The notes under the pieces are model-generated. The model searched no databases and was not told where the DNA came from. It saw nothing but the letters and a program-made list of their open reading frames with translations. A program made the translations under genes and the position numbers. From assembly GCF_003790525.1 (NCBI RefSeq), contig NZ_CP033635.1: a stretch of 64,000 nucleotides of DNA; one strand, written 5' to 3'. Below are positions 18,690-62,140 of the stretch, piece after piece. The DNA comes from Escherichia coli. Lineage in GTDB: Bacteria > Pseudomonadota > Gammaproteobacteria > Enterobacterales > Enterobacteriaceae. Each line of letters starts with the position of its first letter. Position 1 is the first letter of the stretch.

Positions 18690-18698
18690 AATATAAAT

Positions 18699-19098
18699 TC
18701 AAAAACGCATGCGAAACGCTTCTGCCATTTTCCCAATTTTATGCATTTGGTTGTTATCTCGAGCCAGTTTATGAGGTTCAGGTTTCAGAATGGCAATGAG
18801 CAACCATGCTTGCTCATCAAACGCACCCTGACAATATACCAAATGCGCTTCGTCATTCGTTCTGCTGAATTGGCGCAACTGTGGCGGAAATGGATTATTC
18901 ACATTTGCCAGATGAATATGAGCAACTCGCTCAAATTTGATTAATGGCCAGGTAAACGAGTCGTCGTAGGAGTGCATCGCGACCAAATATATCTGGCAAA
19001 ACACCGTCACGCTTATAGGAAATAAAATCCGCCGTTAACGCATCAAGTTCCTCTGCTGTAAGTTGCAGGCGAATAAGTTTTGTTTTGAATACCCGCAT
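18699..19098 (-). pseudogene. yafO: yafO toxin gene interrupted by a single-base frameshift
   Basis: ATG at 19098, coupled to the yafN stop, encodes MRVFKTKLIRLQLTAEELDALTADFISYKRDGVLPDIFGRDAL, then stops after 13 more codons. The rest of YafO (YDDSFTWPLIKFERVAH...FRMRF) continues in the +1 frame; the frames meet at a CTCC run near 18969-18972. Confidence 0.6.
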
Positions 19099-19445: not shown

Positions 19446-20501
19446 TCATAATCCCAGCACCAGTTGTCTTTCCATTTGAGGGTCAAGTAACGTCACATGC
19501 AGCCCCACCAGACGCACACCGCGCCCGCCGCGACGTTCATCCCAGGTTTTACGCGCGGTGGCGATTAGATCAGCTTTATTCAGCCGCGGCCAGACGTGCT
19601 CCTGAGTGGTTTGCTGAAAATCATCAAACTTTAATTTCACCCCCTGGCGAGCAATCAGTAAATCAGGTTTTACCTTTGCCAGACGGCGTTCAAGTTCAGG
19701 ATACAGCCGCTCGATAATCGCTTCACATTCAGACCAGTGATGAATATCTTCCGCCATCGTGCGTTCCACGCCGACGGATTTTCGCAACCGTTCACTGTTA
19801 ACGTCGCGCTCGTCAATCCCCTGACTACGCTCCCACAAAATGCGGCCAAATTTGCCAAAACGTTTGAGCAGAGTCACCAGATCACACTTTTGCACATCAC
19901 CGCAGGTCCGCAGCCCCATCGCTTCCAGTTTTGCCGCCGAGACTTTGCCGACGCCGGGAATTTTTGCCAGCGGTAAGGTTTGCAGAAATGCCGGAACTTC
20001 TGCCGGAGTAATCACAAACTGACCGTTGGGTTTATTCATGTCGGAAGCAATTTTGGCGAGAAACTTTACCGGCGCAACGCCCGCAGATGCCGTCAGTTGC
20101 AGCTCGTTAAAGATCGTCTGACGGATTTCCTTGGCGATGAGGGTCGCAGAACCGTGGCAATGCACACTATCGGTGACGTCGAGATAGGCTTCATCCAGTG
20201 ATAACGGTTCAATGCGCGAGGTATAGCGCGAGAAAATTTCGCGGATATGATTTGAGGCTTCTTTGTAGGCGTCAAAGCGCCCCGGAAGCAAGGTGAGATG
20301 TGGGCATAATTTGAGTGCCATCCCTGTCGGCATAGCGCTGCGTACGCCAAATTTACGCGCGGGATAATTGGCGGTGCTGATCACCCCCCGACGTTCGCGG
20401 CTGCCGCCAATAGCAATAGGGATATCGCGCAGGGCGGGATTGTCGCGCATCTCCACCGCTGCGAAAAAGCAGTCCATATCCACATGAATGATTTTACGCA
20501 T
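19446..20501 (-). CDS. dinB: DNA polymerase IV
   Basis: 351-aa translation [34 protein letters not shown]... matches DinB. Confidence 0.95.
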
Positions 20502-20517
20502 TGCTCACCTCTCAACA

Positions 20518-20533
20518 CTGGTAAAGTATACAG
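20518..20533. promoter_or_regulatory. LexA (SOS) box upstream of dinB
   Basis: CTGGTAAAGTATACAG fits CTG-N10-CAG about 20 nt upstream of the dinB start. Confidence 0.7.
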
Positions 20534-20571
20534 TGATTTCAGGGTTTGAGAAATGCGTAAAGATTCAGCAT

Positions 20572-21495
20572 TTAACGCGTTCGCTGTGAAAGCACCTGCT
20601 GCTTATCCAGCTTTTGCACCAGCGGCTGCACCACTTTATCCCCATGCTGACCAAAGTATTGATACAGCGTATCGGACGCGCTTTTAGTCAGCACCATAAT
20701 CTCAATGCGCCGGTTGCCCGCGCTTTGCGGATTTTTCGCGTCCAGCAGCATCTGGTCCGCCATTGCGCTCACCTGCATCACTTTATCTTCCGGCATTCCT
20801 GCCTCTTCCAGCACCCGACGAGCCGAAAGCGCGCGGTCACCCGAAAGGTTCCAGTTGTTGTAGATATTGTTTTTGTAGGCCATCGCATCGGTATGCCCGG
20901 TAATAATAATTTTGTTATCGAGCGAGTCGAACACTGGCGCGAGCTCCACCAGCAGCGTTTTAAAGAACGGCATAATCTGCGCGCTGCCACGTTCGAACAT
21001 ATTGCGATTCTGGTCGTCTTTAATCAGCACGCGTAATCCCTGCGGGACAATCTCCATCTCCAGATTCGCTTCCATATGCGCATCACGGGCAATGGTGTTG
21101 ATACTGGTTGCCAGCTCACCAAGCTCGGTGGCGGATTTCTTCTTCAGCAGCGCCGTTTTCTCGTTGACGTCGCGCGCTTTTTTCTCCGTCTCTTCCGGCA
21201 CTGCCACGGTGGCAGGTTTTGACGGATGAGACGGGCTGATTTTATTTAACGGCGACAGCCCGCCACCGTTAAAAATCGACTGCCCGTGTAGCGCGGCGAT
21301 AATGCTTTCACGCTCGGATTTACTGACGCTGTTGACAATCCACAGCGTCATAAACAGCGCCATCATTGCCAAAGTAAAATCGGCGAACGCCACCTTCCAC
21401 GCCCCGCCGTGGTGCCCGGCATGATTCTTTTTGATCTGCCGCCGGACGATGGTGGTTTTTGCCCCACGCTCGCGGCGGTTGCCCGTCTTTCTCAT
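20572..21495 (-). CDS. lafU: Lateral flagellar motor stator protein (MotB homolog), full length
   Basis: Translation from MRKTGNRRERGAKTTIVRRQ... has a single transmembrane segment and an OmpA-like C-terminal domain; ATG overlaps the lafT stop. Confidence 0.9.
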   Translation of the reverse strand: MRKTGNRRERGAKTTIVRRQIKKNHAGHHGGAWKVAFADFTLAMMALFMTLWIVNSVSKSERESIIAALHGQSIFNGGGLSPLNKISPSHPSKPATVAVPEETEKKARDVNEKTALLKKKSATELGELATSINTIARDAHMEANLEMEIVPQGLRVLIKDDQNRNMFERGSAQIMPFFKTLLVELAPVFDSLDNKIIITGHTDAMAYKNNIYNNWNLSGDRALSARRVLEEAGMPEDKVMQVSAMADQMLLDAKNPQSAGNRRIEIMVLTKSASDTLYQYFGQHGDKVVQPLVQKLDKQQVLSQRTR

Positions 21496-21497
21496 GC

Positions 21498-22361
21498 TTA
21501 TTCTTGCTCCAGCATCGCATTCACCCACGCGTCGAGGTTGGCGAACGTCGGTTTGGACGCCAGATGCAGCAACTTACGCCCGGCGTCCACCGCCAACAGC
21601 GTCGGTTTGCCGCCCGCCTGGGCCACCAGCACGGTACGCACACACTCCAGCAGCGAATGTTCCGCCCGCGCCTGCTGTTCCATGGCGTTGGCGAGCGGGT
21701 CCATCAGGCAGTAGCAAATAAACACGCCTAAAAATGTCCCCACCAGCGCTGCCGCCACTTTCAGGCCAATCAGGGCGATAGAACCGTCAATTGACTGCAT
21801 GGTGATGATGATGCCCAGCACCGCCGCGCAAATACCAAATCCCGGCATCGCTTCGGCGGTCCGTTGCAGCGAGCGTGACGGCGTTAACAGCGACTCTTCA
21901 GCGGTGTCCAGCTCCTGATCGAGAATGCCTTCCAGTTCATGGGCGTCGATTTTACCCATCGCCATCAGGCGAAAGTTATCGGCAATAAAAGTCACCAGCC
22001 GCTTCTGGGTTAACACCAGCGGGTATTTCTGGAAAACGGTACTCTCTTCCGGCTGCTCAATATGCTGATCCAACATCCGCAGACCGCCGTTTTGTACCAT
22101 TTCAAGCAACTCATACAGGCACATTAATAGCTGGCGCTGAAACTCCGGCCCGAGCTGTTTTTTACTGATCACGCCTTTAATTTGATGGGCAATCTCTTTC
22201 AGCACATGTTTCGGGTTCCCAATAATCATCGCCCCGAAACCCGCACCCAAAATAATGATCATTTCCGCCGGTTGCCAGATAGCCACTAATTGCCCGCCCG
22301 CTTCAAAATAACCGCCAAATACGCAGCCGAGCACCACCAGTAAACCTAATATTTTTTGCAT
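21498..22361 (-). CDS. lafT: Lateral flagellar motor stator protein (MotA homolog)
   Basis: 287-aa multi-pass membrane protein with MotA-like sequence, directly upstream of the MotB homolog. Confidence 0.9.
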   Translation of the reverse strand: MQKILGLLVVLGCVFGGYFEAGGQLVAIWQPAEMIIILGAGFGAMIIGNPKHVLKEIAHQIKGVISKKQLGPEFQRQLLMCLYELLEMVQNGGLRMLDQHIEQPEESTVFQKYPLVLTQKRLVTFIADNFRLMAMGKIDAHELEGILDQELDTAEESLLTPSRSLQRTAEAMPGFGICAAVLGIIITMQSIDGSIALIGLKVAAALVGTFLGVFICYCLMDPLANAMEQQARAEHSLLECVRTVLVAQAGGKPTLLAVDAGRKLLHLASKPTFANLDAWVNAMLEQE

Positions 22362-22373
22362 GATTTCTTCACT

Positions 22374-23093
22374 TTAATTCGGATAGACAAAATCACGAAT
22401 TTTCTGCGCGATCTGTTTATTCAGTTGACAAATTCGGGCCTCGGTTAGCCCTAATACCAGCGCAATCTCTTTGAGATTCATCTCATGCTGGTAATACATG
22501 GAGAGGATCAGTTGCTCTTTTTCGCTTAATTGTGAAAGCGCGTGTTGCAACATTTGCTGGGTGACAAACTGATCTTCCAGTTCCCGGCCAGCAAGCGGAA
22601 TGCCTGGCCCTTCGCCGTTCAGCAGTTCGTCAAGGCTGGCGAGCGTTTCCGCCCCTTCCAGTTGCTGATATTCGAGATAATCTTCATGCGAGATCCCTTC
22701 CACGGCCAGTTCTGACCACTCAGGCTCGTGCCCCAGTTTTTTACGCGTTTCGCGAATCAGGTCTTTCATCTGATGATATTTCTGTCGCAGCTGGCGCGGT
22801 CGCCAGTCGAGAGCGCGCAGCTCATCCAGGATCGCACCGCGAATACGGTGCACGGCATAGCCCGCAAAACCTTCGTCCGGCAGCCCGTAGCGGCGAATGG
22901 CATTAAGCAGCCCCATTAACGCCGTTTGTTCCATATCCTGACGATCAATAATGCAATTACACTGCGGGGCAAGTTGCCGCACCACTTTACGCACCAGTGG
23001 TAAATAGGCCTGCAAGTAGTGGCTCTCCTGCTGCGGGGTTAATACCGGCGCGGCAGCAAATTCTTCTGACTCGAATAATACGTCCTGTAGCAT
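22374..23093 (-). CDS. lafS: Lateral flagellar sigma factor (FliA/sigma-28 homolog)
   Basis: 239 aa with sigma-70 family regions 2 and 4 (e.g. ...LKEIALVLGLTEARICQLNKQ...). Confidence 0.9.
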   Translation of the reverse strand: MLQDVLFESEEFAAAPVLTPQQESHYLQAYLPLVRKVVRQLAPQCNCIIDRQDMEQTALMGLLNAIRRYGLPDEGFAGYAVHRIRGAILDELRALDWRPRQLRQKYHQMKDLIRETRKKLGHEPEWSELAVEGISHEDYLEYQQLEGAETLASLDELLNGEGPGIPLAGRELEDQFVTQQMLQHALSQLSEKEQLILSMYYQHEMNLKEIALVLGLTEARICQLNKQIAQKIRDFVYPN

Positions 23094-23112: not shown

Positions 23113-23580
23113 TTACTGGAAGACCACTTTTTTCACCAGCAAATCCTTATACGGTGCGCTCATTTTGCGACGCTGAAGATCTTTCTTTAGCGCATCAGAA
23201 ATCAGTTTGCGGATGGCAGATATTTTCATGCCCCGCAAATCTTCAAATTTCATTTCCGTCAGGCATTCAACCGCAATACTTTGATACAATGGCTCCTGAT
23301 GTTTTATTTTTTCCGCTTCTTTGTCACTGGCAACCACCATCACTAATTCCGCCGACAAATAATGGTCCGCGCCGTTGTTGTCATGCAGCGTGACAATGGT
23401 TTCCGGCAGCGTCACAAACACGCTTTTGCTTTCATCCAGGGTTTCCACCGCTTCCGTCCGCGCAACGGCAGTCGGTTTTCCTTTTCCGGCATAATGATGC
23501 CAGACACCCCATCCAGCTCCAGCGCCGACCACCAACGCCAGAACGGCGCTGACCACGCCCGCCACCACGATTTTCTTCAT
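23113..23580 (-). CDS. lafF: Flagellar basal-body-associated protein (FliL homolog)
   Basis: 155 aa with N-terminal transmembrane segment and FliL-like sequence. Confidence 0.8.
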   Translation of the reverse strand: MKKIVVAGVVSAVLALVVGAGAGWGVWHHYAGKGKPTAVARTEAVETLDESKSVFVTLPETIVTLHDNNGADHYLSAELVMVVASDKEAEKIKHQEPLYQSIAVECLTEMKFEDLRGMKISAIRKLISDALKKDLQRRKMSAPYKDLLVKKVVFQ

Positions 23581-23587
23581 ATTGCCT

Positions 23588-24649
23588 TTACACTTTGATC
23601 AAAACGGATTCGTTCTGTTGAAATTGAGGCGCATCATCAAGCTGTAAGGCGGCACTCACCTCTTCCTGCTGATGGCCCGACTGTTGTTGCTGTTGCGACT
23701 GCCCTTCGGAGGAGACCTGTACGTTCACCTCCATAAAATTTTGCGCCGTCAGATGCTGGCGGAGATCGTCGCTAAACTGCTGTAACGCGCGGCAAACTTC
23801 ACTTTGGTTCGCGCCGATGTGCACCATCAGTTTGCCGTTGTCGAGTTGTACGGCGATCTCGAGCTTGCCAAGCGACGGTGGATCGAGACGGATGGTGGAG
23901 ATCTGCTGTTGTTTGTTGAGCTGAAAGTGGATCTGATCTTTCAACAGCGTCGTCAGTTTTTCGCCCAGTTCGTCCATCGAAAGCGTGGCTGGTTTGGCGA
24001 CAATCTCCTGATGTTCGCTGACCAGATCCGGCGTCTTAACCTGCAACACCGCACGCGCAATAACCGGTTCGCTGTCCGGCACTTTTTCCGTTTTACGCTC
24101 GACCTGCGGGCGCGCGTTCACACGGGTTAGTTCAGGTTTCGGGCGAGCTGGCTGTGTTGAGACGCGCGGCTGCGTCGGTGCAATGGCATGTAAATCTTCA
24201 CTGGCGTAAGTCGCCAGTCTGGCCTGCTGTTCGGGTTTCGCCTGCGGCAACTGACTGATCAGCTCCTGCAACTGCGGCGGCAACGGCGTGAGTTCCTGCT
24301 GCTGCGTCGGGCGTTGCGCCGCGTTTTGCACCACCGCTTTCGTCAATTGCTGGATAACCGGCGATGTTGCGACGTTTCGCGGCTGCGGCGTGTCCTGATG
24401 CGGCGCGGCAGGTTGCGGAAGTAACAGCGCCATTAGCGCCTGCATCGCCACCGGATCGTTCTCCTGCGGGCGCGTCGCCTGTTGCTGACTGGTTTTTGCG
24501 CTATGAACGCGCTCCGCCACCGCCGCGACCGCCATTTTCGGCAGGGTAAACGCGGGCGCGTTTTCACTACTCACCGGCGGTAAAATATCCGCTTTCAGCG
24601 ACGCCGTTTCCGCAAGTGTTCCGAGCGTGGCAAGCAATGCCGGATTCAT
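23588..24649 (-). CDS. lafE: Hook-length control protein (FliK homolog)
   Basis: 353 aa, Pro/Gln-rich central region with a conserved C-terminal domain; position after the fliT/fliS homologs. Confidence 0.75.
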   Translation of the reverse strand: MNPALLATLGTLAETASLKADILPPVSSENAPAFTLPKMAVAAVAERVHSAKTSQQQATRPQENDPVAMQALMALLLPQPAAPHQDTPQPRNVATSPVIQQLTKAVVQNAAQRPTQQQELTPLPPQLQELISQLPQAKPEQQARLATYASEDLHAIAPTQPRVSTQPARPKPELTRVNARPQVERKTEKVPDSEPVIARAVLQVKTPDLVSEHQEIVAKPATLSMDELGEKLTTLLKDQIHFQLNKQQQISTIRLDPPSLGKLEIAVQLDNGKLMVHIGANQSEVCRALQQFSDDLRQHLTAQNFMEVNVQVSSEGQSQQQQQSGHQQEEVSAALQLDDAPQFQQNESVLIKV

Positions 24650-24957
24650 GACTTCTCCGAAAGTAAATTAACAATTGAGTAGGCCAGTACGCCTTCCTGA
24701 TGCCGCTGATGCTGTTCCATACGCGCCTTCAACACTTCTGCACGCTGCTCGCGCCGTTTAATCAGGGCATTAAACGCGCCGTACAGCTGCGCCTTCACCG
24801 CACACAACTGCGCCGCGTCGGTTTCCGCCGCCACGTAATCGTGAAACTGGCGCATCAACTGCTGATGCAGTGCCGGAAGGCGTCGCCAGCGTTGCTTGTC
24901 GAGGGCTTCGTTCATCGCTTCAACCAGCGCGAAAAGTTGCCTGCGTTGTTTTTCCAT
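24646..24957 (-). CDS. lafD: Flagellar chaperone (FliT-like)
   Basis: Small helical protein between the FliS and FliK homologs. Start placed at ATG 24957; the track start at 24999 is a GTG that would overlap lafC. Confidence 0.55.
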   Translation of the reverse strand: MEKQRRQLFALVEAMNEALDKQRWRRLPALHQQLMRQFHDYVAAETDAAQLCAVKAQLYGAFNALIKRREQRAEVLKARMEQHQRHQEGVLAYSIVNLLSEKS

Positions 24958-24961
24958 CGTC

Positions 24962-25354
24962 TTAACCCAGCTTGCCCGAAAGCCCTTCCCAGCCTTCACG
25001 CAGGTTGCTTAAGATCAGCATCACTTCATCGATTTTCTCTGCCGACAGTTCGCCACTGGCTTCATACAAGCGATACACGCAGTGGTCATAGAGGCGAGAA
25101 AGATTCACCACCAGCTCGCCACCGGTTTCAAACTCCAGCGAACTGGTGAGCGCATTGAGAATGTCGATGCATTTATTGATGCTCTGGGCTTTCTTCTCGA
25201 AACGCCGCCCTTCAATGTGGCTTCTGGCGCGTTCCAGCTCGTCCATCAGGCCAGAAAACAGCACCAGCACCAGTTCAAGAGGCGATGCCGCAGCGGTACG
25301 CGCCGCGAGATCGACCTCTTTGTATTGCGAATAGCCATCCTGTACTTGGTACAT
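24962..25354 (-). CDS. lafC: Flagellin-specific chaperone (FliS homolog)
   Basis: 130-aa translation MYQVQDGYSQYKEVDLAARTAAASPLELVLVLFSGLMDELERA... is FliS-like. Confidence 0.85.
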   Translation of the reverse strand: MYQVQDGYSQYKEVDLAARTAAASPLELVLVLFSGLMDELERARSHIEGRRFEKKAQSINKCIDILNALTSSLEFETGGELVVNLSRLYDHCVYRLYEASGELSAEKIDEVMLILSNLREGWEGLSGKLG

Positions 25355-25376: not shown

Positions 25377-26693
25377 TTACGCGAATGCCGCCATGCTGGC
25401 TTTCATGGTGTACACCTCAACCAGCGTGTTGGTGTACTCCTCCAGATAACGGTCGTAGTTGGCGTTATAGGTATCGGTAAGCTGATCGCCTTCGTCCTGA
25501 ATTTTGCTCATCTGATCGTCAATGTTCTGCTGGCGCAGGGTGATGATGCCGTTGCTGGAGTCGGTATAGGTGTCAATAAGGCTGTCCATCTGCGCCACCA
25601 TGCTGTTATCGCCGACGAAAATAGAGGTCAGGCCGTCGGGATCGCTCTTCATCGCGTCGTTGAACTGGTCTGAATCAATCTGTAAATGGCCGTGAGAATC
25701 GAGCGTAATGCCATAGTCGACAATCGACACGCCGTTGTAGCTGGCATGGGCGATGTCATCGAGCTGGTTTGCCAGTGAGCTGAGTCCGGCGTCGCCTGCA
25801 AATACCCCGGCGCTGGTACTGTCATCACCGTGGGTGGTCAGCGAATCAACCGTATCAATCAAGGTGTTATATGCATCGACAAAGGTCTGTACTTTCTCCT
25901 GGCTGGCGCTGGAATCTTCGCTGATGTTAAAGGTAGTGAGATCGCTGTCAGAATCGCTGACTTCGGTGAAAGTCATGGTGACGCCGGGGATCACATCATC
26001 AAAGGTATTGCTGCTATTAGTGATCTCTGGCCCCGTGGCGCTGCCGAGATGAATAATCGCGTCCTGGGCGGAGGAAACATCCGTAGCAACAGGCGCGCTG
26101 GCGCTGTCGTTGCTGGCGTCATGCCCCGTTACGCTCACCGAAAATGCGCTCTGCGCCCCGGTGCTATCGGAGGTGAGCATAATCGTGGTGGTGCCGTCGG
26201 TTTTTACCAGTGCCGCCGACACGCCCGGATTGTCATCAGAGTCGTTAATCGCATTCACCAGTTCACTGGCGTCGATAAAACCGTCGCCGTCACCGTTTTG
26301 ATCCGCCGCCGACAGATCGATATCCATGGTGCTGCCGCCCATCGTCAGTTCGAAGGTGCCGGTAGCGGAAAAGGCGTCGTCGCCCATACTGAACGTGGTT
26401 TGCTGCCCCTGTGCCAGTTGCTCAACGAAAAATGAGTAGCTTCCCGCCTGCGCCTGGGAATTGGCGGAAACGGTCGCCGAGTCATTATTGCTGGTGGCGG
26501 CAAACGTCACCGGGCCGTCAGTATCGCTGTTCAGCGCGTCAACGGCGCTCTGAAAATCGCTCAACGCTGAGCTGAGCGAGTCCAGGCCGCTGCTTTCCGC
26601 ATCCAGCTCGCTCTGCTTCTCCTGCAAGTTTGCCGCCTGAGTGGCAACATCCGCATAGGCGATTTCTTGCGCAATGGTTCTTGGGTTGATCAT
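25377..26693 (-). CDS. lafB: Flagellar filament cap protein (FliD homolog)
   Basis: 438 aa with FliD-like N- and C-terminal heptad regions. Confidence 0.85.
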   Translation of the reverse strand: MINPRTIAQEIAYADVATQAANLQEKQSELDAESSGLDSLSSALSDFQSAVDALNSDTDGPVTFAATSNNDSATVSANSQAQAGSYSFFVEQLAQGQQTTFSMGDDAFSATGTFELTMGGSTMDIDLSAADQNGDGDGFIDASELVNAINDSDDNPGVSAALVKTDGTTTIMLTSDSTGAQSAFSVSVTGHDASNDSASAPVATDVSSAQDAIIHLGSATGPEITNSSNTFDDVIPGVTMTFTEVSDSDSDLTTFNISEDSSASQEKVQTFVDAYNTLIDTVDSLTTHGDDSTSAGVFAGDAGLSSLANQLDDIAHASYNGVSIVDYGITLDSHGHLQIDSDQFNDAMKSDPDGLTSIFVGDNSMVAQMDSLIDTYTDSSNGIITLRQQNIDDQMSKIQDEGDQLTDTYNANYDRYLEEYTNTLVEVYTMKASMAAFA

Positions 26694-26725
26694 TGATGAC
26701 TCCGGATAACGATGTCAGGTTATTG

Positions 26726-26740
26726 GCAAAAGGCGTGCCA
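26726..26740 (-). promoter_or_regulatory. Sigma-54 (-24/-12) promoter upstream of lafB
   Basis: Minus strand reads TTGGCACgccttTTGCC, i.e. GG-N10-GC matching TGGCAC-N5-TTGC; predicted start ~20 nt upstream of the lafB ATG, with GGAG RBS in between. Confidence 0.5.
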
Positions 26741-26828
26741 ATAATTTTTATGTGAATAATCAATAAATTGAAAAAGGGGCGGAAATGGTGTTTCCGGTCT
26801 GGCGGAAAAAAGCCTGCCGCTGAAAGCA

Positions 26829-26854
26829 CAACACCGCCCGCAGGCGGTGTTGTT
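26829..26854 (-). terminator. Stem-loop downstream of lafA
   Basis: ACAACACCGCC-cgc-AGGCGGTGTTGT inverted repeat about 45 nt after the lafA stop, next to a REP element. Confidence 0.4.
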
Positions 26855-26856
26855 CG

Positions 26857-26890
26857 TAGCCGGATAAGGCGTTTACGCCGCATCCGGCAA
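26857..26890. repeat. REP (repetitive extragenic palindrome) element
   Basis: GTAGCCGGATAAGGCGTTTACGCCGCATCCGGCAAG matches the REP palindromic unit. Confidence 0.6.
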
Positions 26891-27858: not shown

Positions 27859-27885
27859 AAAACGACACCTCAGGAGCAAACTTAA
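27859..27885 (-). promoter_or_regulatory. Candidate sigma-28-type (LafS-dependent) promoter upstream of lafA
   Basis: Minus strand reads TTAAGTTT-N11-GTCGTTTT about 45 nt upstream of the lafA ATG; shares a motif with sites upstream of lfgK and lfgM. Confidence 0.3.
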
Positions 27886-32547: not shown

Positions 32548-32575
32548 AAAGCGGCGTGAAGATGGGGAATCTTAA
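32548..32575 (-). promoter_or_regulatory. Candidate sigma-28-type (LafS-dependent) promoter upstream of lfgK
   Basis: Minus strand reads TTAAGATT-N12-GCCGCTTT about 30 nt upstream of the lfgK ATG. Confidence 0.3.
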
Positions 32576-32595
32576 GTTCCGTAAACCGGGTGCCA

Positions 32596-32920
<325 letters not shown>

Positions 32921-32935
32921 CCGAACGTCGGAGCC

Positions 32936-39442: not shown

Positions 39443-39458
39443 AGCAATCGCTGTGCCA
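39443..39458 (-). promoter_or_regulatory. Sigma-54 (-24/-12) promoter of the lfgB operon
   Basis: Minus strand reads TTGGCACagcgaTTGCT, an exact fit to TGGCAC-N5-TTGC; predicted start ~26 nt upstream of the lfgB ATG. Confidence 0.55.
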
Positions 39459-39487: not shown

Positions 39488-40225
39488 ATGAGTTTTCAAT
39501 TTTGCAGGCGGAAGTTTTATTTCCTCCTGGCGCTGGCCTTACCGGGCTACGCCGCCGTCCATCCCGTGCAACATAGCGCGCGGGAACAAATCAACGCCCA
39601 GGTACTGAATACCGCGAGCCAAAAAATTGAATCGCTGGCGCAGCAGCGGCAATGGCATGACTATCGCTACACCTTTAAGGTCTATATTCCGTCGCAGATT
39701 GCGACCGCCGCGCCCTGTACAACGTCACCCGGCGTCACGCTGACGTCGCCTGCGGAAATCGCCCTTAACCGGATGAACTTCACCGTCAGTTGCCCGCAAA
39801 GCTGGCAGATGAACGTCGCGGTGCGCCCGGATGTTCTGGTACCGGTGGTGATGGCAAAGTCACTGGTTGCCCGCGATACGCCGCTCACGGCAAATGATGT
39901 GGAGCTGAAGCCCTACAACGTCAGCGCCCAGCGTCGCGATGTGTTGATGGAGCTCGATGACGCAATTGGTTTAAGCAGTAAGCACGCGTTGCAACCGGGC
40001 AGACCAATCACCAAAGAAGAGCTGGTTTCGCCAGTGCTGGTCGAACGCGATCAGCCGGTGATGATTGTTTACCAGAGCGCGGGGATCACCGCCTCGATGC
40101 CCGGCGTGGCGCTGAAAAATGGTCGCAAAGGGGAAATGGTGAAAGTACGTAACGTCAGCAGCCAGCGGGTCATTAGCGCGAGGGTGGCGGAAAGCGGCGT
40201 GGTGACAACGGTAAGCGCGGAGTAA
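39488..40225 (+). CDS. lfgA: Flagellar P-ring assembly chaperone (FlgA homolog)
   Basis: Translation from MSFQFCRRKFYFLLALALPGYAAVHP... has a signal peptide and a FlgA-like C-terminal domain; divergent from lfgB. Confidence 0.8.
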   Translation: MSFQFCRRKFYFLLALALPGYAAVHPVQHSAREQINAQVLNTASQKIESLAQQRQWHDYRYTFKVYIPSQIATAAPCTTSPGVTLTSPAEIALNRMNFTVSCPQSWQMNVAVRPDVLVPVVMAKSLVARDTPLTANDVELKPYNVSAQRRDVLMELDDAIGLSSKHALQPGRPITKEELVSPVLVERDQPVMIVYQSAGITASMPGVALKNGRKGEMVKVRNVSSQRVISARVAESGVVTTVSAE

Positions 40226-41024: not shown

Positions 41025-41151
41025 CGACAATTCCTTCCCCCATCGCGGAAACGGATTTTCCGCCTGATTCTCAATCCCTTGTTTTTGATTACAAAAATTC
41101 CCGGCACGCTTATTGCACATTCCGCAAAGTAATAAAGACTGGAAGCCACCT

Positions 41152-42081
41152 ATGAGTTTTATTGAACGTTACGAACCGGAATACGTGCGCAATTTTATGA
41201 CGCAATATCCCGATTCGCCTTTGTACGTCCGCAAGGTCTGGAAGAATGAGATTCGCCAGAGCCTGGCATTGACCGATATTGAAAGTTGCAAAGCGGTGCT
41301 CAACGATGCCAGGGCCTTTGATTTACAGCTCACCTACCGCCCTGTGGAAGACAATGCCGCCGAGCTATCCGCGCGCGATGCGATAGTAAACCAGGCCATT
41401 TTGAGCACCCTTACGCTCCCCGATTTAACCCCGGAGCTTTCCCTGTATGCCGTCGGGATTTTGCTCTCCCGCGCCAGTAAAATGCCGGGCAGAGACGGAG
41501 ATATTCTTGCCCGCTTGACGACGCTGCCACAGGCGCTGGGGGATCATGCACAAAAAGGCACGCTACAGGCACAGTTCGCCCAACTCCCACCCGTGCCACA
41601 ACTGGCGCGCCAACTGGTGACGCTGCTCGGGAGTTTTGCGTTTGACTGGTCGATTTTGCCGGAAAGCCCGCGCAAAGCCTCGCTACCGTTGCAGGTGACT
41701 TTGCTGACGTTGCATGACGCCAACAGCGAAGCTTTGTTGCAACAGCAGCTTAAGGTGCAGTGGCAAACCACCTGGCAACAGCATTTTGCCGCCGCGCCGT
41801 GGATGATGCGCAACTGGCTGATTTACCGCGTTTATCACGACGTGATTGGGCAGGCAGACGGAGCAGATTATTGCCCGCTGGTGTGTGATTTTTATCTCAT
41901 CCGCACGTTAATCAGTTTATGGACGCTGGATGGTTCACCGCTGCGGAAGGAGGATATTTTCGCCCTTTTTGCGGTGTTTGAACGCTGGCGAGAGAGTGAA
42001 AATGCTGCGGCGATTCGCCAGCAGCTCCAGTCGTTATGTGCGGCAGAGCCGCTGCTGTCAGCATTTTCGCTGCTGACGTGA
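41152..42081 (+). CDS. Hypothetical protein within the Flag-2 cluster
   Basis: Open frame from MSFIERYEPEYVRNFMTQYPDSPLYVRK... with core-like composition; no recognisable motif. Confidence 0.55.
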   Translation: MSFIERYEPEYVRNFMTQYPDSPLYVRKVWKNEIRQSLALTDIESCKAVLNDARAFDLQLTYRPVEDNAAELSARDAIVNQAILSTLTLPDLTPELSLYAVGILLSRASKMPGRDGDILARLTTLPQALGDHAQKGTLQAQFAQLPPVPQLARQLVTLLGSFAFDWSILPESPRKASLPLQVTLLTLHDANSEALLQQQLKVQWQTTWQQHFAAAPWMMRNWLIYRVYHDVIGQADGADYCPLVCDFYLIRTLISLWTLDGSPLRKEDIFALFAVFERWRESENAAAIRQQLQSLCAAEPLLSAFSLLT

Positions 42082-52267: not shown

Positions 52268-53254
52268 TCAGGAGAAAACTTCGATACCGTGCTTGCGCAT
52301 GGAGGCCAGTCGATAGCGCAGTGCGCGCGGGGTAATGCCTAACAGGTCAGCGATTTTGCTGCGGTTGCCCTGATATTTACGCATCAGGTCGGCGATATAT
52401 TGATACTGCGCGCTTCGTCCGTGCTGGCCTAAATCGCCGGTTTCGGCAATGTGGACGGCGGGCTGAACAGGCCATTGCAGTTCACTGTGGTCAGCAATAT
52501 CGGTGTCCGGCAGGCCTAATGCATCCGGGTAAATTACGCCGTCGCGATTTAAAATCATTCCCCGCTGAATGGCGTTTTCCAGTTGGCGAACGTTACCGGG
52601 CCAACGGTAATTGAGCAGCGCACGGCGGGTGGATTCGGACAGGGTGATATTTTTCACCAGCACCGTGGAGTATTTTTTAATAAATGACTCTGCCAGCGGA
52701 ATAATATCGTTCAGACGTTCACGCAGCGGCGGCATGGTAATAGGAATCACCGCCAGACGATAATAGAGATCTTCACGAAAACGTCCGGCGGCAACTTCCT
52801 GCTCCAGGTTTTTATTGGTGCAGGCAATCAGGCGAAAATTGAGTTTGATTTGTCGGTTGCTGCCTAATCGCTCAACCTGTTGTTCCTGCAACACGCGTAA
52901 TATTTTGGCCTGTAGCGCCAGCGGCATTTCACCAATTTCATCGAGCAATAAGGAGCCGTTATTTGCCAGTTCCATTTTTCCTGGCACGCTGGCAATTGCG
53001 CCGGTAAATGCGCCTTTGTCGTAGCCAAATAACGTCGATTCCAGCATATTTTCCGGGATCGCCGCGCAGTTCACGCCGATATAGGGCGCATTATCATTTT
53101 CACCAAAGGCTACGGTGTGAATATATTTCGCCACGCACTCTTTCCCCGCGCCGGTTTCGCCCTGAATGAGCACCGGCACGTTAAAGGCGGCGACACGCTT
53201 TGCCAGAGTAAAAGCGTTAATGCTGGAAGCGGCAGTTGCAATAAGTTCAGACAT
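52268..53254 (-). CDS. lafK: Sigma-54-dependent transcriptional activator of lateral flagella (AAA+ domain plus C-terminal HTH, no N-terminal receiver domain)
   Basis: 328 aa; Walker A GETGAGKE at residues ~30-40, GAFTGA sigma-54 contact motif, C-terminal Fis-type HTH (SKIADLLGITPRALRYRLAS). No coding potential upstream for a receiver domain. Confidence 0.9.
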   Translation of the reverse strand: MSELIATAASSINAFTLAKRVAAFNVPVLIQGETGAGKECVAKYIHTVAFGENDNAPYIGVNCAAIPENMLESTLFGYDKGAFTGAIASVPGKMELANNGSLLLDEIGEMPLALQAKILRVLQEQQVERLGSNRQIKLNFRLIACTNKNLEQEVAAGRFREDLYYRLAVIPITMPPLRERLNDIIPLAESFIKKYSTVLVKNITLSESTRRALLNYRWPGNVRQLENAIQRGMILNRDGVIYPDALGLPDTDIADHSELQWPVQPAVHIAETGDLGQHGRSAQYQYIADLMRKYQGNRSKIADLLGITPRALRYRLASMRKHGIEVFS

Positions 53255-61862: not shown

Positions 61863-62140
61863 ATGATTCAAAGGGATATTGAATACTCGGGACAATTTTC
61901 AAAGGATGTAAAACTTGCACAAAAGCGTCATAAGGATATGAATAAATTGAAATATCTTATGACGCTCTTATCAATAATACTTTACTGCTTCCAGCTGTTT
62001 ATAAAGACCACCCGCTGCAAGGTTCATGGAAAGGTTATCGCGATGCTCATGTCGAACCGGACTGGATCCTGATTTACAAACTTACCGATAAACTTTTACG
62101 ATTTGAGAGAACTGGAACTCACGCGGCGCTATTTGGGTAA
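61863..62140 (+). pseudogene. yafQ: yafQ toxin gene interrupted by a single-base frameshift
   Basis: N-terminus MIQRDIEYSGQFSKDVKLAQKRHKDMNKLKYLMTLL is YafQ. After CTCTTATCAATAAT the frame shifts; the remainder (INNTLLLPAVYKDHPLQGSWKGYRDAHVEPDWILIYKL...AALFG) continues in another frame to TAA at 62138-62140. Span is 278 nt, not a multiple of 3. Confidence 0.6.

Follow-up and report, generated by a model that had tools for sequence, protein, structure and literature searches.

The lateral flagellar genes lafBCDEFSTU of Escherichia coli, among them those for a sigma-28 homolog and a MotAB-type stator, probably form one transcript driven by a sigma-54/LafK promoter at positions 26726-26740 (minus strand) of the DNA stretch of 64,000 nucleotides analyzed here (hereafter, the window). 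According to the RefSeq annotation, the window spans the whole of the Flag-2 (secondary, lateral-type) flagellar locus, which is composed of lfhAB-lfiRQPNM / lafK-lfiEFGHIJ, a variable region, lfgNMA / lfgB-L-lafW, lafZ, lafA and lafBCDEFSTU, and is flanked by yafL/rayT and dinB. Between positions 20400 and 27900, the sequence matches the chromosome of E. coli SMS-3-5 (NC_010498.1) with 100% identity. None of the Flag-2 genes of this strain is flagged as a pseudogene in the RefSeq annotation, all of them being annotated as intact. In this strain, the annotation lists the toxin genes yafO and yafQ, located at the flanks of Flag-2 (18698-19098 and 61863-62140), as pseudogenes with frameshifts.

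The minus strand from 26741 to 26725 reads tTGGCACGCCTTTTGCc / TTGGCACGCCTTTTGCC, and the core TGGCAC-N5-TTGC is located at 26740-26726 (TGGCACGCCTTTTGC). The letters of the sigma-54 motif reported here by the sequence-only reading were thus confirmed, and the core is an exact match. Its GG lies at 26739-26738 and its GC at 26727-26726, and these dinucleotides are exactly 10 bp apart, as in the sigma-54 consensus. When TGGCACGCCTTTTGCc (26740-26725) is compared with TGGCAC-N5-TTGCW, the sole departure is the last base of the -12 element, which is C instead of the preferred A or T. Transcription of the operon is predicted to start near 26714, about 12 nt past the GC. In the same reading, about 20 nt separated the motif from the lafB ATG, and a GGAG ribosome-binding site lay within this interval; the GGAG exists (26700..26703, minus strand), 6 nt before the ATG at 26693, but the distance from the end of the motif to the ATG is 32 nt. 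About 20 nt is instead the length of the leader expected for a transcript that begins near 26714.

Only two exact copies of TGGCACN5TTGC were found on both strands of the 64 kb, against 0.27 expected from dinucleotide-preserving shuffles, just two of 100 of which reached two matches. Both copies are intergenic, correctly oriented and upstream of start codons, namely those of lafB and lfgB (39444..39458, minus strand, also an exact consensus match). In a weighted scan, the three best intergenic matches were those of lfgB (39458-39443), lafB (26740-26725) and a fliB-like gene (41102-41117), all located 31-36 nt before a start codon on the correct strand. A site upstream of lfgK (32581-32595; TGGCAC-N5-TTAC, one mismatch) was rejected as a sigma-54 promoter; it is without the -12 GC, and a LafS-type motif (see below) is recognized there instead.

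To place the lafB element in a wider context, 80 loci with FliD relatives were collected, one genome per species, by a genome scan seeded with an alignment of 13 FliD sequences, and the neighbouring genes were mapped by tblastn. A -24/-12 motif scoring at least 18.5 exists within 100 nt upstream of lafB in all of the 16 Enterobacterales Flag-2 loci (from Pseudocitrobacter, Phytobacter, several Citrobacter, Enterobacter, Pseudescherichia, Dryocola, Erwinia, Rosenbergiella, Tatumella and one Enterobacteriaceae metagenome-assembled genome), and it is still kept where the identity of LafB among these loci drops to 29-38%. In the remaining 548 kb of the loci (both strands), only eight matches reached the same score, one of them being the lfgB promoter of Phytobacter; this background corresponds to 0.0015 matches expected per 100-nt interval. 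Across genera, the five spacer bases vary and the flanking DNA diverges, whereas TGGCA(C/T) and TTGC(T/A) are constant. Among divergent E. coli alleles, the promoter is invariant, as are the arms of an upstream palindrome described below, whereas the loop of that palindrome and the adjacent bases vary. Two lateral loci of Photobacterium carry TGGAAY-N5-TTGCT at the equivalent position upstream of lafB. Judged by this conservation, the element at 26726-26740 is a genuine sigma-54 promoter. The probability that it is a chance match without promoter function is practically nil: although a consensus of ten bases has the expectation of 0.27 per window given above, the occurrence in 16 of 16 loci across genera effectively refutes such a reading, the position and orientation suit a promoter, and the motif is accompanied by the matched palindrome and an IHF-like site.

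The operon downstream of this promoter is read entirely on the minus strand. It begins with lafB (FliD-type filament cap, 25377..26693) and continues with lafC (FliS-type chaperone, 24962..25354), lafD (a small protein with no family match, 24646..24957), lafE (FliK-type hook-length control, 23588..24649), lafF (FliL-like, 23113..23580), lafS (sigma-28 / FliA-family sigma factor, 22374..23093), lafT (MotA-type stator protein, 21498..22361) and lafU (MotB-type stator protein, 20572..21495), the last gene. The identities of LafS (FliA/WhiG sigma factor), LafT (MotA) and LafU, which the sequence-only reading had named as a sigma-28 homolog and a MotAB-type stator, were judged by the curated cut-offs of NCBIfam, and all of them pass (LafS, NF009091, 447 bits against a cut-off of 339; LafT, TIGR03818, 375 against 304; LafU, 580 against 383). 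By the RefSeq coordinates, the gaps B-C, C-D, D-E, E-F, F-S, S-T and T-U are 22, 4, -4, 7, 19, 12 and 2 nt, in agreement with the claim that these genes overlap or are separated by at most about 22 nt. Such tight packing from lafB to lafU is kept in 17 loci, in which the largest true gap is 48 nt, and the order fliD, fliS, small gene, fliK, fliL, fliA, motA, motB is kept in more than 50 loci.

Internal promoters or terminators between lafE and lafS had been named by the earlier reading as an observation against its proposal; in the window, no convincing terminator, sigma-54 site or LafS-type promoter was found inside lafB-lafU. Terminator-like hairpins between 20300 and 28400 are at the level of chance (10 found against 9.3 expected), and of these, two fall within genes on the operon strand, each with a stem of just 5 bp. 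Weak sigma-70-like matches exist in lafF (23333-23306) and lafB (25951-25924), as does a weak sigma-54-like match within lafS (22605-22590); all of these are low-scoring and not conserved, and they might be minor internal promoters. At the other end of the operon, no terminator hairpin was found in the 70 nt between the lafU stop and dinB (20502-20571), and transcription of the Flag-2 operon might thus continue into dinB. The same gap contains the LexA box of dinB, CTGTATACTTTACCAG.

The classical E. coli sigma-28 consensus (TAAAGTTT-N11-GCCGATAA) gave no match near any Flag-2 gene and was replaced by a motif derived from lafA. Alignment of the lafA upstream regions of 19 loci revealed TTAAG(T)TT-N11-12-G(T/C)CG(T/C)TTT, conserved about 47 nt before the lafA ATG. 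This LafS-type motif (TTAAGWTT-N11-12-GYCGYTTT), an unvalidated one defined here from the lafA and lfgK upstream regions, is unlike the classical -10 element GCCGATAA. In the whole window, it is located only upstream of lafA (27859..27885, minus strand; TTAAGTTT-N11-GTCGTTTT) and upstream of lfgK (32548..32575, minus strand); across 18 loci, it exists upstream of lafA in 15 and upstream of lfgK in 11, and almost never elsewhere. Between lfgJ and lfgK, a cluster of REP/BIME repeats is located at 32600-32935, and it includes two matches to the Rfam family naRNA4 (RF02564; 32652-32728 and 32769-32846). No LafS-type motif was found upstream of lafB in any Flag-2 locus (the window and the 16 Enterobacterales loci), and the sole match inside the operon across loci is a weak one within lafT of Rosenbergiella. 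Thus, by sequence, the lafB-U operon of the Enterobacterales carries a sigma-54 promoter only.

These results bear on the possibility of dual or multiple control, in which lafS and/or lafT-lafU are also transcribed substantially from an internal LafS or sigma-70 promoter, or by read-through from the lafA promoter. In Vibrio parahaemolyticus, the fliA-encoded sigma-28 activates class III, and fliDSTKLAmotAB is listed in class III as well as in class II (PMC6963403), so that a single promoter is not guaranteed; the corresponding operon of Plesiomonas is FliA(L)-dependent (PMC11242183). The weak internal matches described above and the poor U-tract of the lafA terminator point in the same direction. 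However, those internal matches are low-scoring and not conserved, the LafS-type motif is absent from lafB and from the operon apart from the Rosenbergiella match, and three hairpins separate lafA from the lafB promoter. We therefore regard substantial dual control as doubtful, and transcription of lafB-U from the sigma-54 promoter as the preferred reading.

The spacer between lafA and lafB consists of several distinct parts. Immediately 3' of the lafA stop is a REP element (26859..26888, minus strand), which is followed by a GC-rich 11-bp hairpin (26829..26853, minus strand), probably the lafA terminator. The predicted RNA fold from lafA to the promoter (z-score -5.7) consists of the REP hairpin, the GC-rich hairpin of 11 bp and a small third one; lafA is thus probably a separate transcription unit. 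An Rfam search of the spacer revealed no RNA family. The copy number of the REP element varies among E. coli strains, this strain having a single REP after lafA and others several REP/BIME copies, and such REP expansion accounts for the variation in spacer length, which may be as short as about 205 nt or exceed 600 nt (about 410-650 nt in multi-REP/BIME strains), with the promoter module unchanged.

When the lafB upstream regions were stacked on the -24 element, a palindrome, GGAAR-N5-YTTCC, often extended to GCGGAAA-N5-TTTCCGC, was found upstream of the promoter. In the window, the copy proximal to lafB is GGAAACACCATTTCC (26781..26795), and its centre falls at about -74, 48 nt before the T of TGGCAC; across loci, the centre lies 48-53 nt upstream of this T. 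A distal imperfect palindrome, GCGGCAG-N5-TTTCCGC (26802..26820), precedes the proximal one by about 23 bp, and a second GGAA/TTCC copy or half-copy about two helical turns further upstream is common in many other genera. The window contains three exact copies of GGAAR-N5-YTTCC, against 0.26 expected, and none of 100 shuffles reached three. The second copy, GGAAGTTTTATTTCC (39510..39524), is 59 nt upstream of the -24 element of lfgB, within the coding sequence of the divergent lfgA, and the third (41047..41061) is 48 nt upstream of the sigma-54-type motif of the fliB-like gene. Among 21 loci (420 kb), 22 of the 29 exact copies precede a sigma-54 motif in the correct orientation by 48-61 nt. 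The lfgB palindrome is inside lfgA in six genera (Escherichia, Phytobacter, Pseudescherichia, Leminorella, Enterobacter, with one mismatch, and Cedecea), where it keeps a constant distance of 59-61 nt from the promoter, yet falls on different codons of the poorly conserved N-terminus of LfgA. Between the palindrome and the -24 element of lafB there is also an exact match to the IHF consensus, CAATTTATTGATT (YAANNNNTTGATW; 26758..26770, minus strand). Such an IHF-like site, with at most one mismatch, exists in eight of 13 representative lafB loci, against 1.65 expected, and mostly at the same position. Based on these results, the palindrome is a candidate LafK enhancer, and it is there that LafK most likely binds. 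No description of GGAAR-N5-YTTCC was found in the searchable literature, and no LafK binding site was found in published work for comparison.

It is also conceivable that the lafB palindrome serves only as an intrinsic terminator for lafA, or is bound by a different regulator, LafZ for example, and that LafK acts from elsewhere or from solution. The stretch 26796-26780 was indeed flagged as a terminator-like hairpin, followed by CCCCTTTTTC, and the hairpin also forms in the predicted RNA fold; with its 6-bp stem and CCCCUUUUUC, it is a weak candidate for a Rho-independent terminator. The failure to find a published LafK binding site is compatible with this reading, and sigma-54 activators that work without enhancers exist, FlgR being cited as one in PMC3162934. 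The T-run that follows the palindrome in E. coli is missing in many genera. However, a terminator cannot explain the lfgB palindrome, because that copy falls within the coding sequence of lfgA, away from the end of any gene, at its constant distance from the promoter in six genera. In addition, a further copy precedes the promoter of the fliB-like gene, the arm sequence itself is conserved beyond mere pairing, 22 of the 29 copies have a sigma-54 motif at a set distance, and LafK carries an HTH_8 domain. A terminator or a site for another regulator is hence unlikely to be the whole explanation, and a LafK enhancer is the reading preferred here; the lafB copy may in addition act as a lafA terminator.

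Exact copies of the palindrome were also found upstream of lfgM in Enterobacter (locus L085, at about 9069) and Cedecea (locus L086, at about 9328), without a strong sigma-54 motif nearby; these may mark an extra LafK-controlled promoter that is absent from E. coli. In Phytobacter massiliensis (locus L005, 1-1300), lfgC is directly followed by lfgI, lfgD-H apparently having been deleted, and the lfgB promoter and its palindrome are intact.

The third sigma-54-type promoter of the window, CGGCACGCTTATTGCA (41102-41117, plus strand), is 34 nt upstream of a FliB-like ORF (41152-42081). This hypothetical gene is flagellin lysine methylase-like, and a glycosyltransferase gene comes next. The promoter has its own upstream palindrome, and the same arrangement was recognized in Leminorella (locus L084, at about 8124, minus strand).

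The candidate activator is encoded in the locus itself. The gene lafK (52268..53254, minus strand) is intact and encodes a protein of 328 aa, which starts straight at the AAA+ domain, with no sensory domain, and contains GETGAGKE as Walker A, a GAFTGA motif and, at the C-terminus, an HTH_8; the domains recognized are Sigma54_activat (E-value = 1e-63), AAA_lid and HTH_8. The gene for sigma-54 itself, rpoN, is a core gene of E. coli and is located outside the window. LafK has been classed with PspF and HrpR/S as an activator lacking a sensory domain (PMC3162934), which matches the domain layout found here.

From the sequence we infer for E. coli dependence on sigma-54 and LafK, the transcription start, the binding of LafK to the palindrome and co-transcription of the operon, and these would fit together as follows. 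Sigma-54 RNA polymerase would bind the promoter at 26726-26740 as a closed complex, which would be opened by LafK, the locus-encoded and sensor-less activator. LafK would bind the GGAAR-N5-YTTCC palindromes, whose centre lies about 48 nt before the -24 element, and the IHF-like site in between would aid the bending of the DNA. A single polycistronic transcript, lafB-C-D-E-F-S-T-U, would then be produced, by which the filament cap, the chaperone, the hook-length protein, LafS and the MotAB-type stator would all be class II (LafK-dependent). LafS would in turn read the promoters of the type TTAAG-N14-16-GYCGYT upstream of lafA and lfgK (class III). The predictions that follow from the sequence-only reading at the level of sequence hold, in that the motif is conserved, the genes are tightly packed, LafK is intact and a LafS-type promoter is absent from the operon.

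Our fuller proposal reaches beyond the lafB operon, and we hold it more tentatively, at somewhat below an even chance. By this proposal, the palindrome would be a previously undescribed LafK enhancer, and, together with the LafS-type consensus, it would provide the complete cis-regulatory map of the enterobacterial Flag-2, with three LafK/sigma-54 promoters (lfgB, lafB and the unit of the fliB-like methylase and glycosyltransferase) and two LafS promoters (lafA and lfgK), the sigma-28 and stator genes being purely class II in Enterobacterales.

Among the closest known systems are two in which the wiring has already been described. In E. coli PCN033, lfgB and lafB of Flag-2 were reported in 2015 to be preceded by consensus sigma-54 sites (Liu et al., PMC4578781). 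The Flag-2 locus has been described for strains 042 and PCN033 (Ren et al. 2005; Liu et al. 2015), and the promoter there is itself no different from that of the window. In the E. coli Flag-2 literature searched, the upstream palindrome, the third promoter and the LafS-type consensus are not mentioned, and a paper on RpoN ChIP in Y. pseudotuberculosis makes no mention of Flag-2. In V. parahaemolyticus, fliDSTKLA-motAB is a LafK/sigma-54 class II operon (Stewart and McCarter 2003, as cited in PMC6963403 and PMC4481668). There, too, the gene order is orthologous and the sigma-28 and stator genes belong to one LafK/sigma-54 operon; a GGCAC-N5-TTGC site is predicted upstream of lafB, and expression of lafBCD depends on rpoN. 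The latter was reported in 2022, when lafBCD were found to be down-regulated in an rpoN mutant and an RpoN site was predicted at VPA1550 (lafB) (PMC9817140). In the same study, the lafB promoter was not shifted by purified RpoN alone in EMSA, sigma-54 minus core polymerase being a weak test. This situation differs from that of Enterobacterales in two respects: the Vibrio operon is also class III, whereas the LafS-type motif was undetected at lafB or in the operon here and in the 16 Enterobacterales loci, and none of the Photobacterium and Vibrio loci examined showed the GGAA/TTCC palindrome of Enterobacterales.

Flag-2 also resembles the PspF-type systems in its sensor-less activator and in the order of its elements, with an inverted repeat as candidate enhancer, then an IHF-like site, then the -24/-12 elements, as in the classical sigma-54 layout. 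However, the candidate enhancer of Flag-2 is closer, being centred at about -74 to -87, and no PspA-like negative regulator is evident in Flag-2; the activity of LafK is presumably set by the amount of LafK made. With the Flag-1 system of E. coli and Salmonella, Flag-2 shares three tiers and the use of sigma-28 with an anti-sigma factor (lfgM here) over late genes. In Flag-1, however, class II promoters depend on FlhDC/sigma-70, sigma-28 belongs to class II, and the motor genes require sigma-28 and belong to class III (PMC3658858), whereas in Flag-2 the genes of sigma-28 and the stator probably share one sigma-54 operon with the homologues of fliD, fliS and fliK. The contrast in wiring drawn by the earlier reading between this locus and "the E. 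coli polar system" is therefore sound, but the word polar is not, the primary system of E. coli being peritrichous.

The same fliD-fliS-fliK-fliL-fliA-motA-motB order is also recognized in betaproteobacterial clusters (Janthinobacterium, Massilia, Vogesella, Chromobacterium, Roseateles and others). In these clusters, fliD is not preceded by a sigma-54 motif, and the 9 kb on each side contain no lafK homologue. Thus, the sigma-54 wiring belongs to the gammaproteobacterial lateral lineage and not to the gene order as such, and the order from fliD to motB is older and more widespread than the sigma-54 wiring.

Whether such wiring has a physiological consequence in E. coli depends on whether Flag-2 is active. 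The function of Flag-2 in Escherichia has been called not understood, a frameshift in lfgC of strain 042 is inactivating, and deletions exist in many strains (PMC4578781, PMC11420993, PMC6993521); most of the Flag-2 region is present in only about 1267 of 5426 complete E. coli genomes. A conserved promoter could then belong to a system that is effectively silent, by silencing or for want of an inducing signal. We consider this quite improbable: all Flag-2 genes of the present strain are annotated as intact, divergent E. coli alleles agree in the promoter and the palindrome arms and vary in the neighbouring bases, and expression of the Flag-2 of Yersinia enterocolitica has been reported (as cited in PMC11420993).

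In short, the proposed wiring of lafB-lafU is very probably right, and since the lafB sigma-54 site and this wiring have already been published for E. coli Flag-2 and for Vibrio, the finding is correct yet ordinary. The promoter by itself adds little to what has been published for E. coli Flag-2 and experimentally shown for the lateral system of Vibrio. More useful are the by-products, namely the candidate LafK site, the third LafK-type promoter, located before flagellin-modification genes, and the LafS promoter consensus, all of which merit the attention of specialists. The candidate LafK site, the promoters and the LafS consensus would allow the Flag-2 regulon to be predicted from sequence and clean reporter constructs to be designed. 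If true, the purely class II status of the sigma-28 and stator genes in Enterobacterales would differ from the situation in Vibrio, where these genes are class II plus class III.
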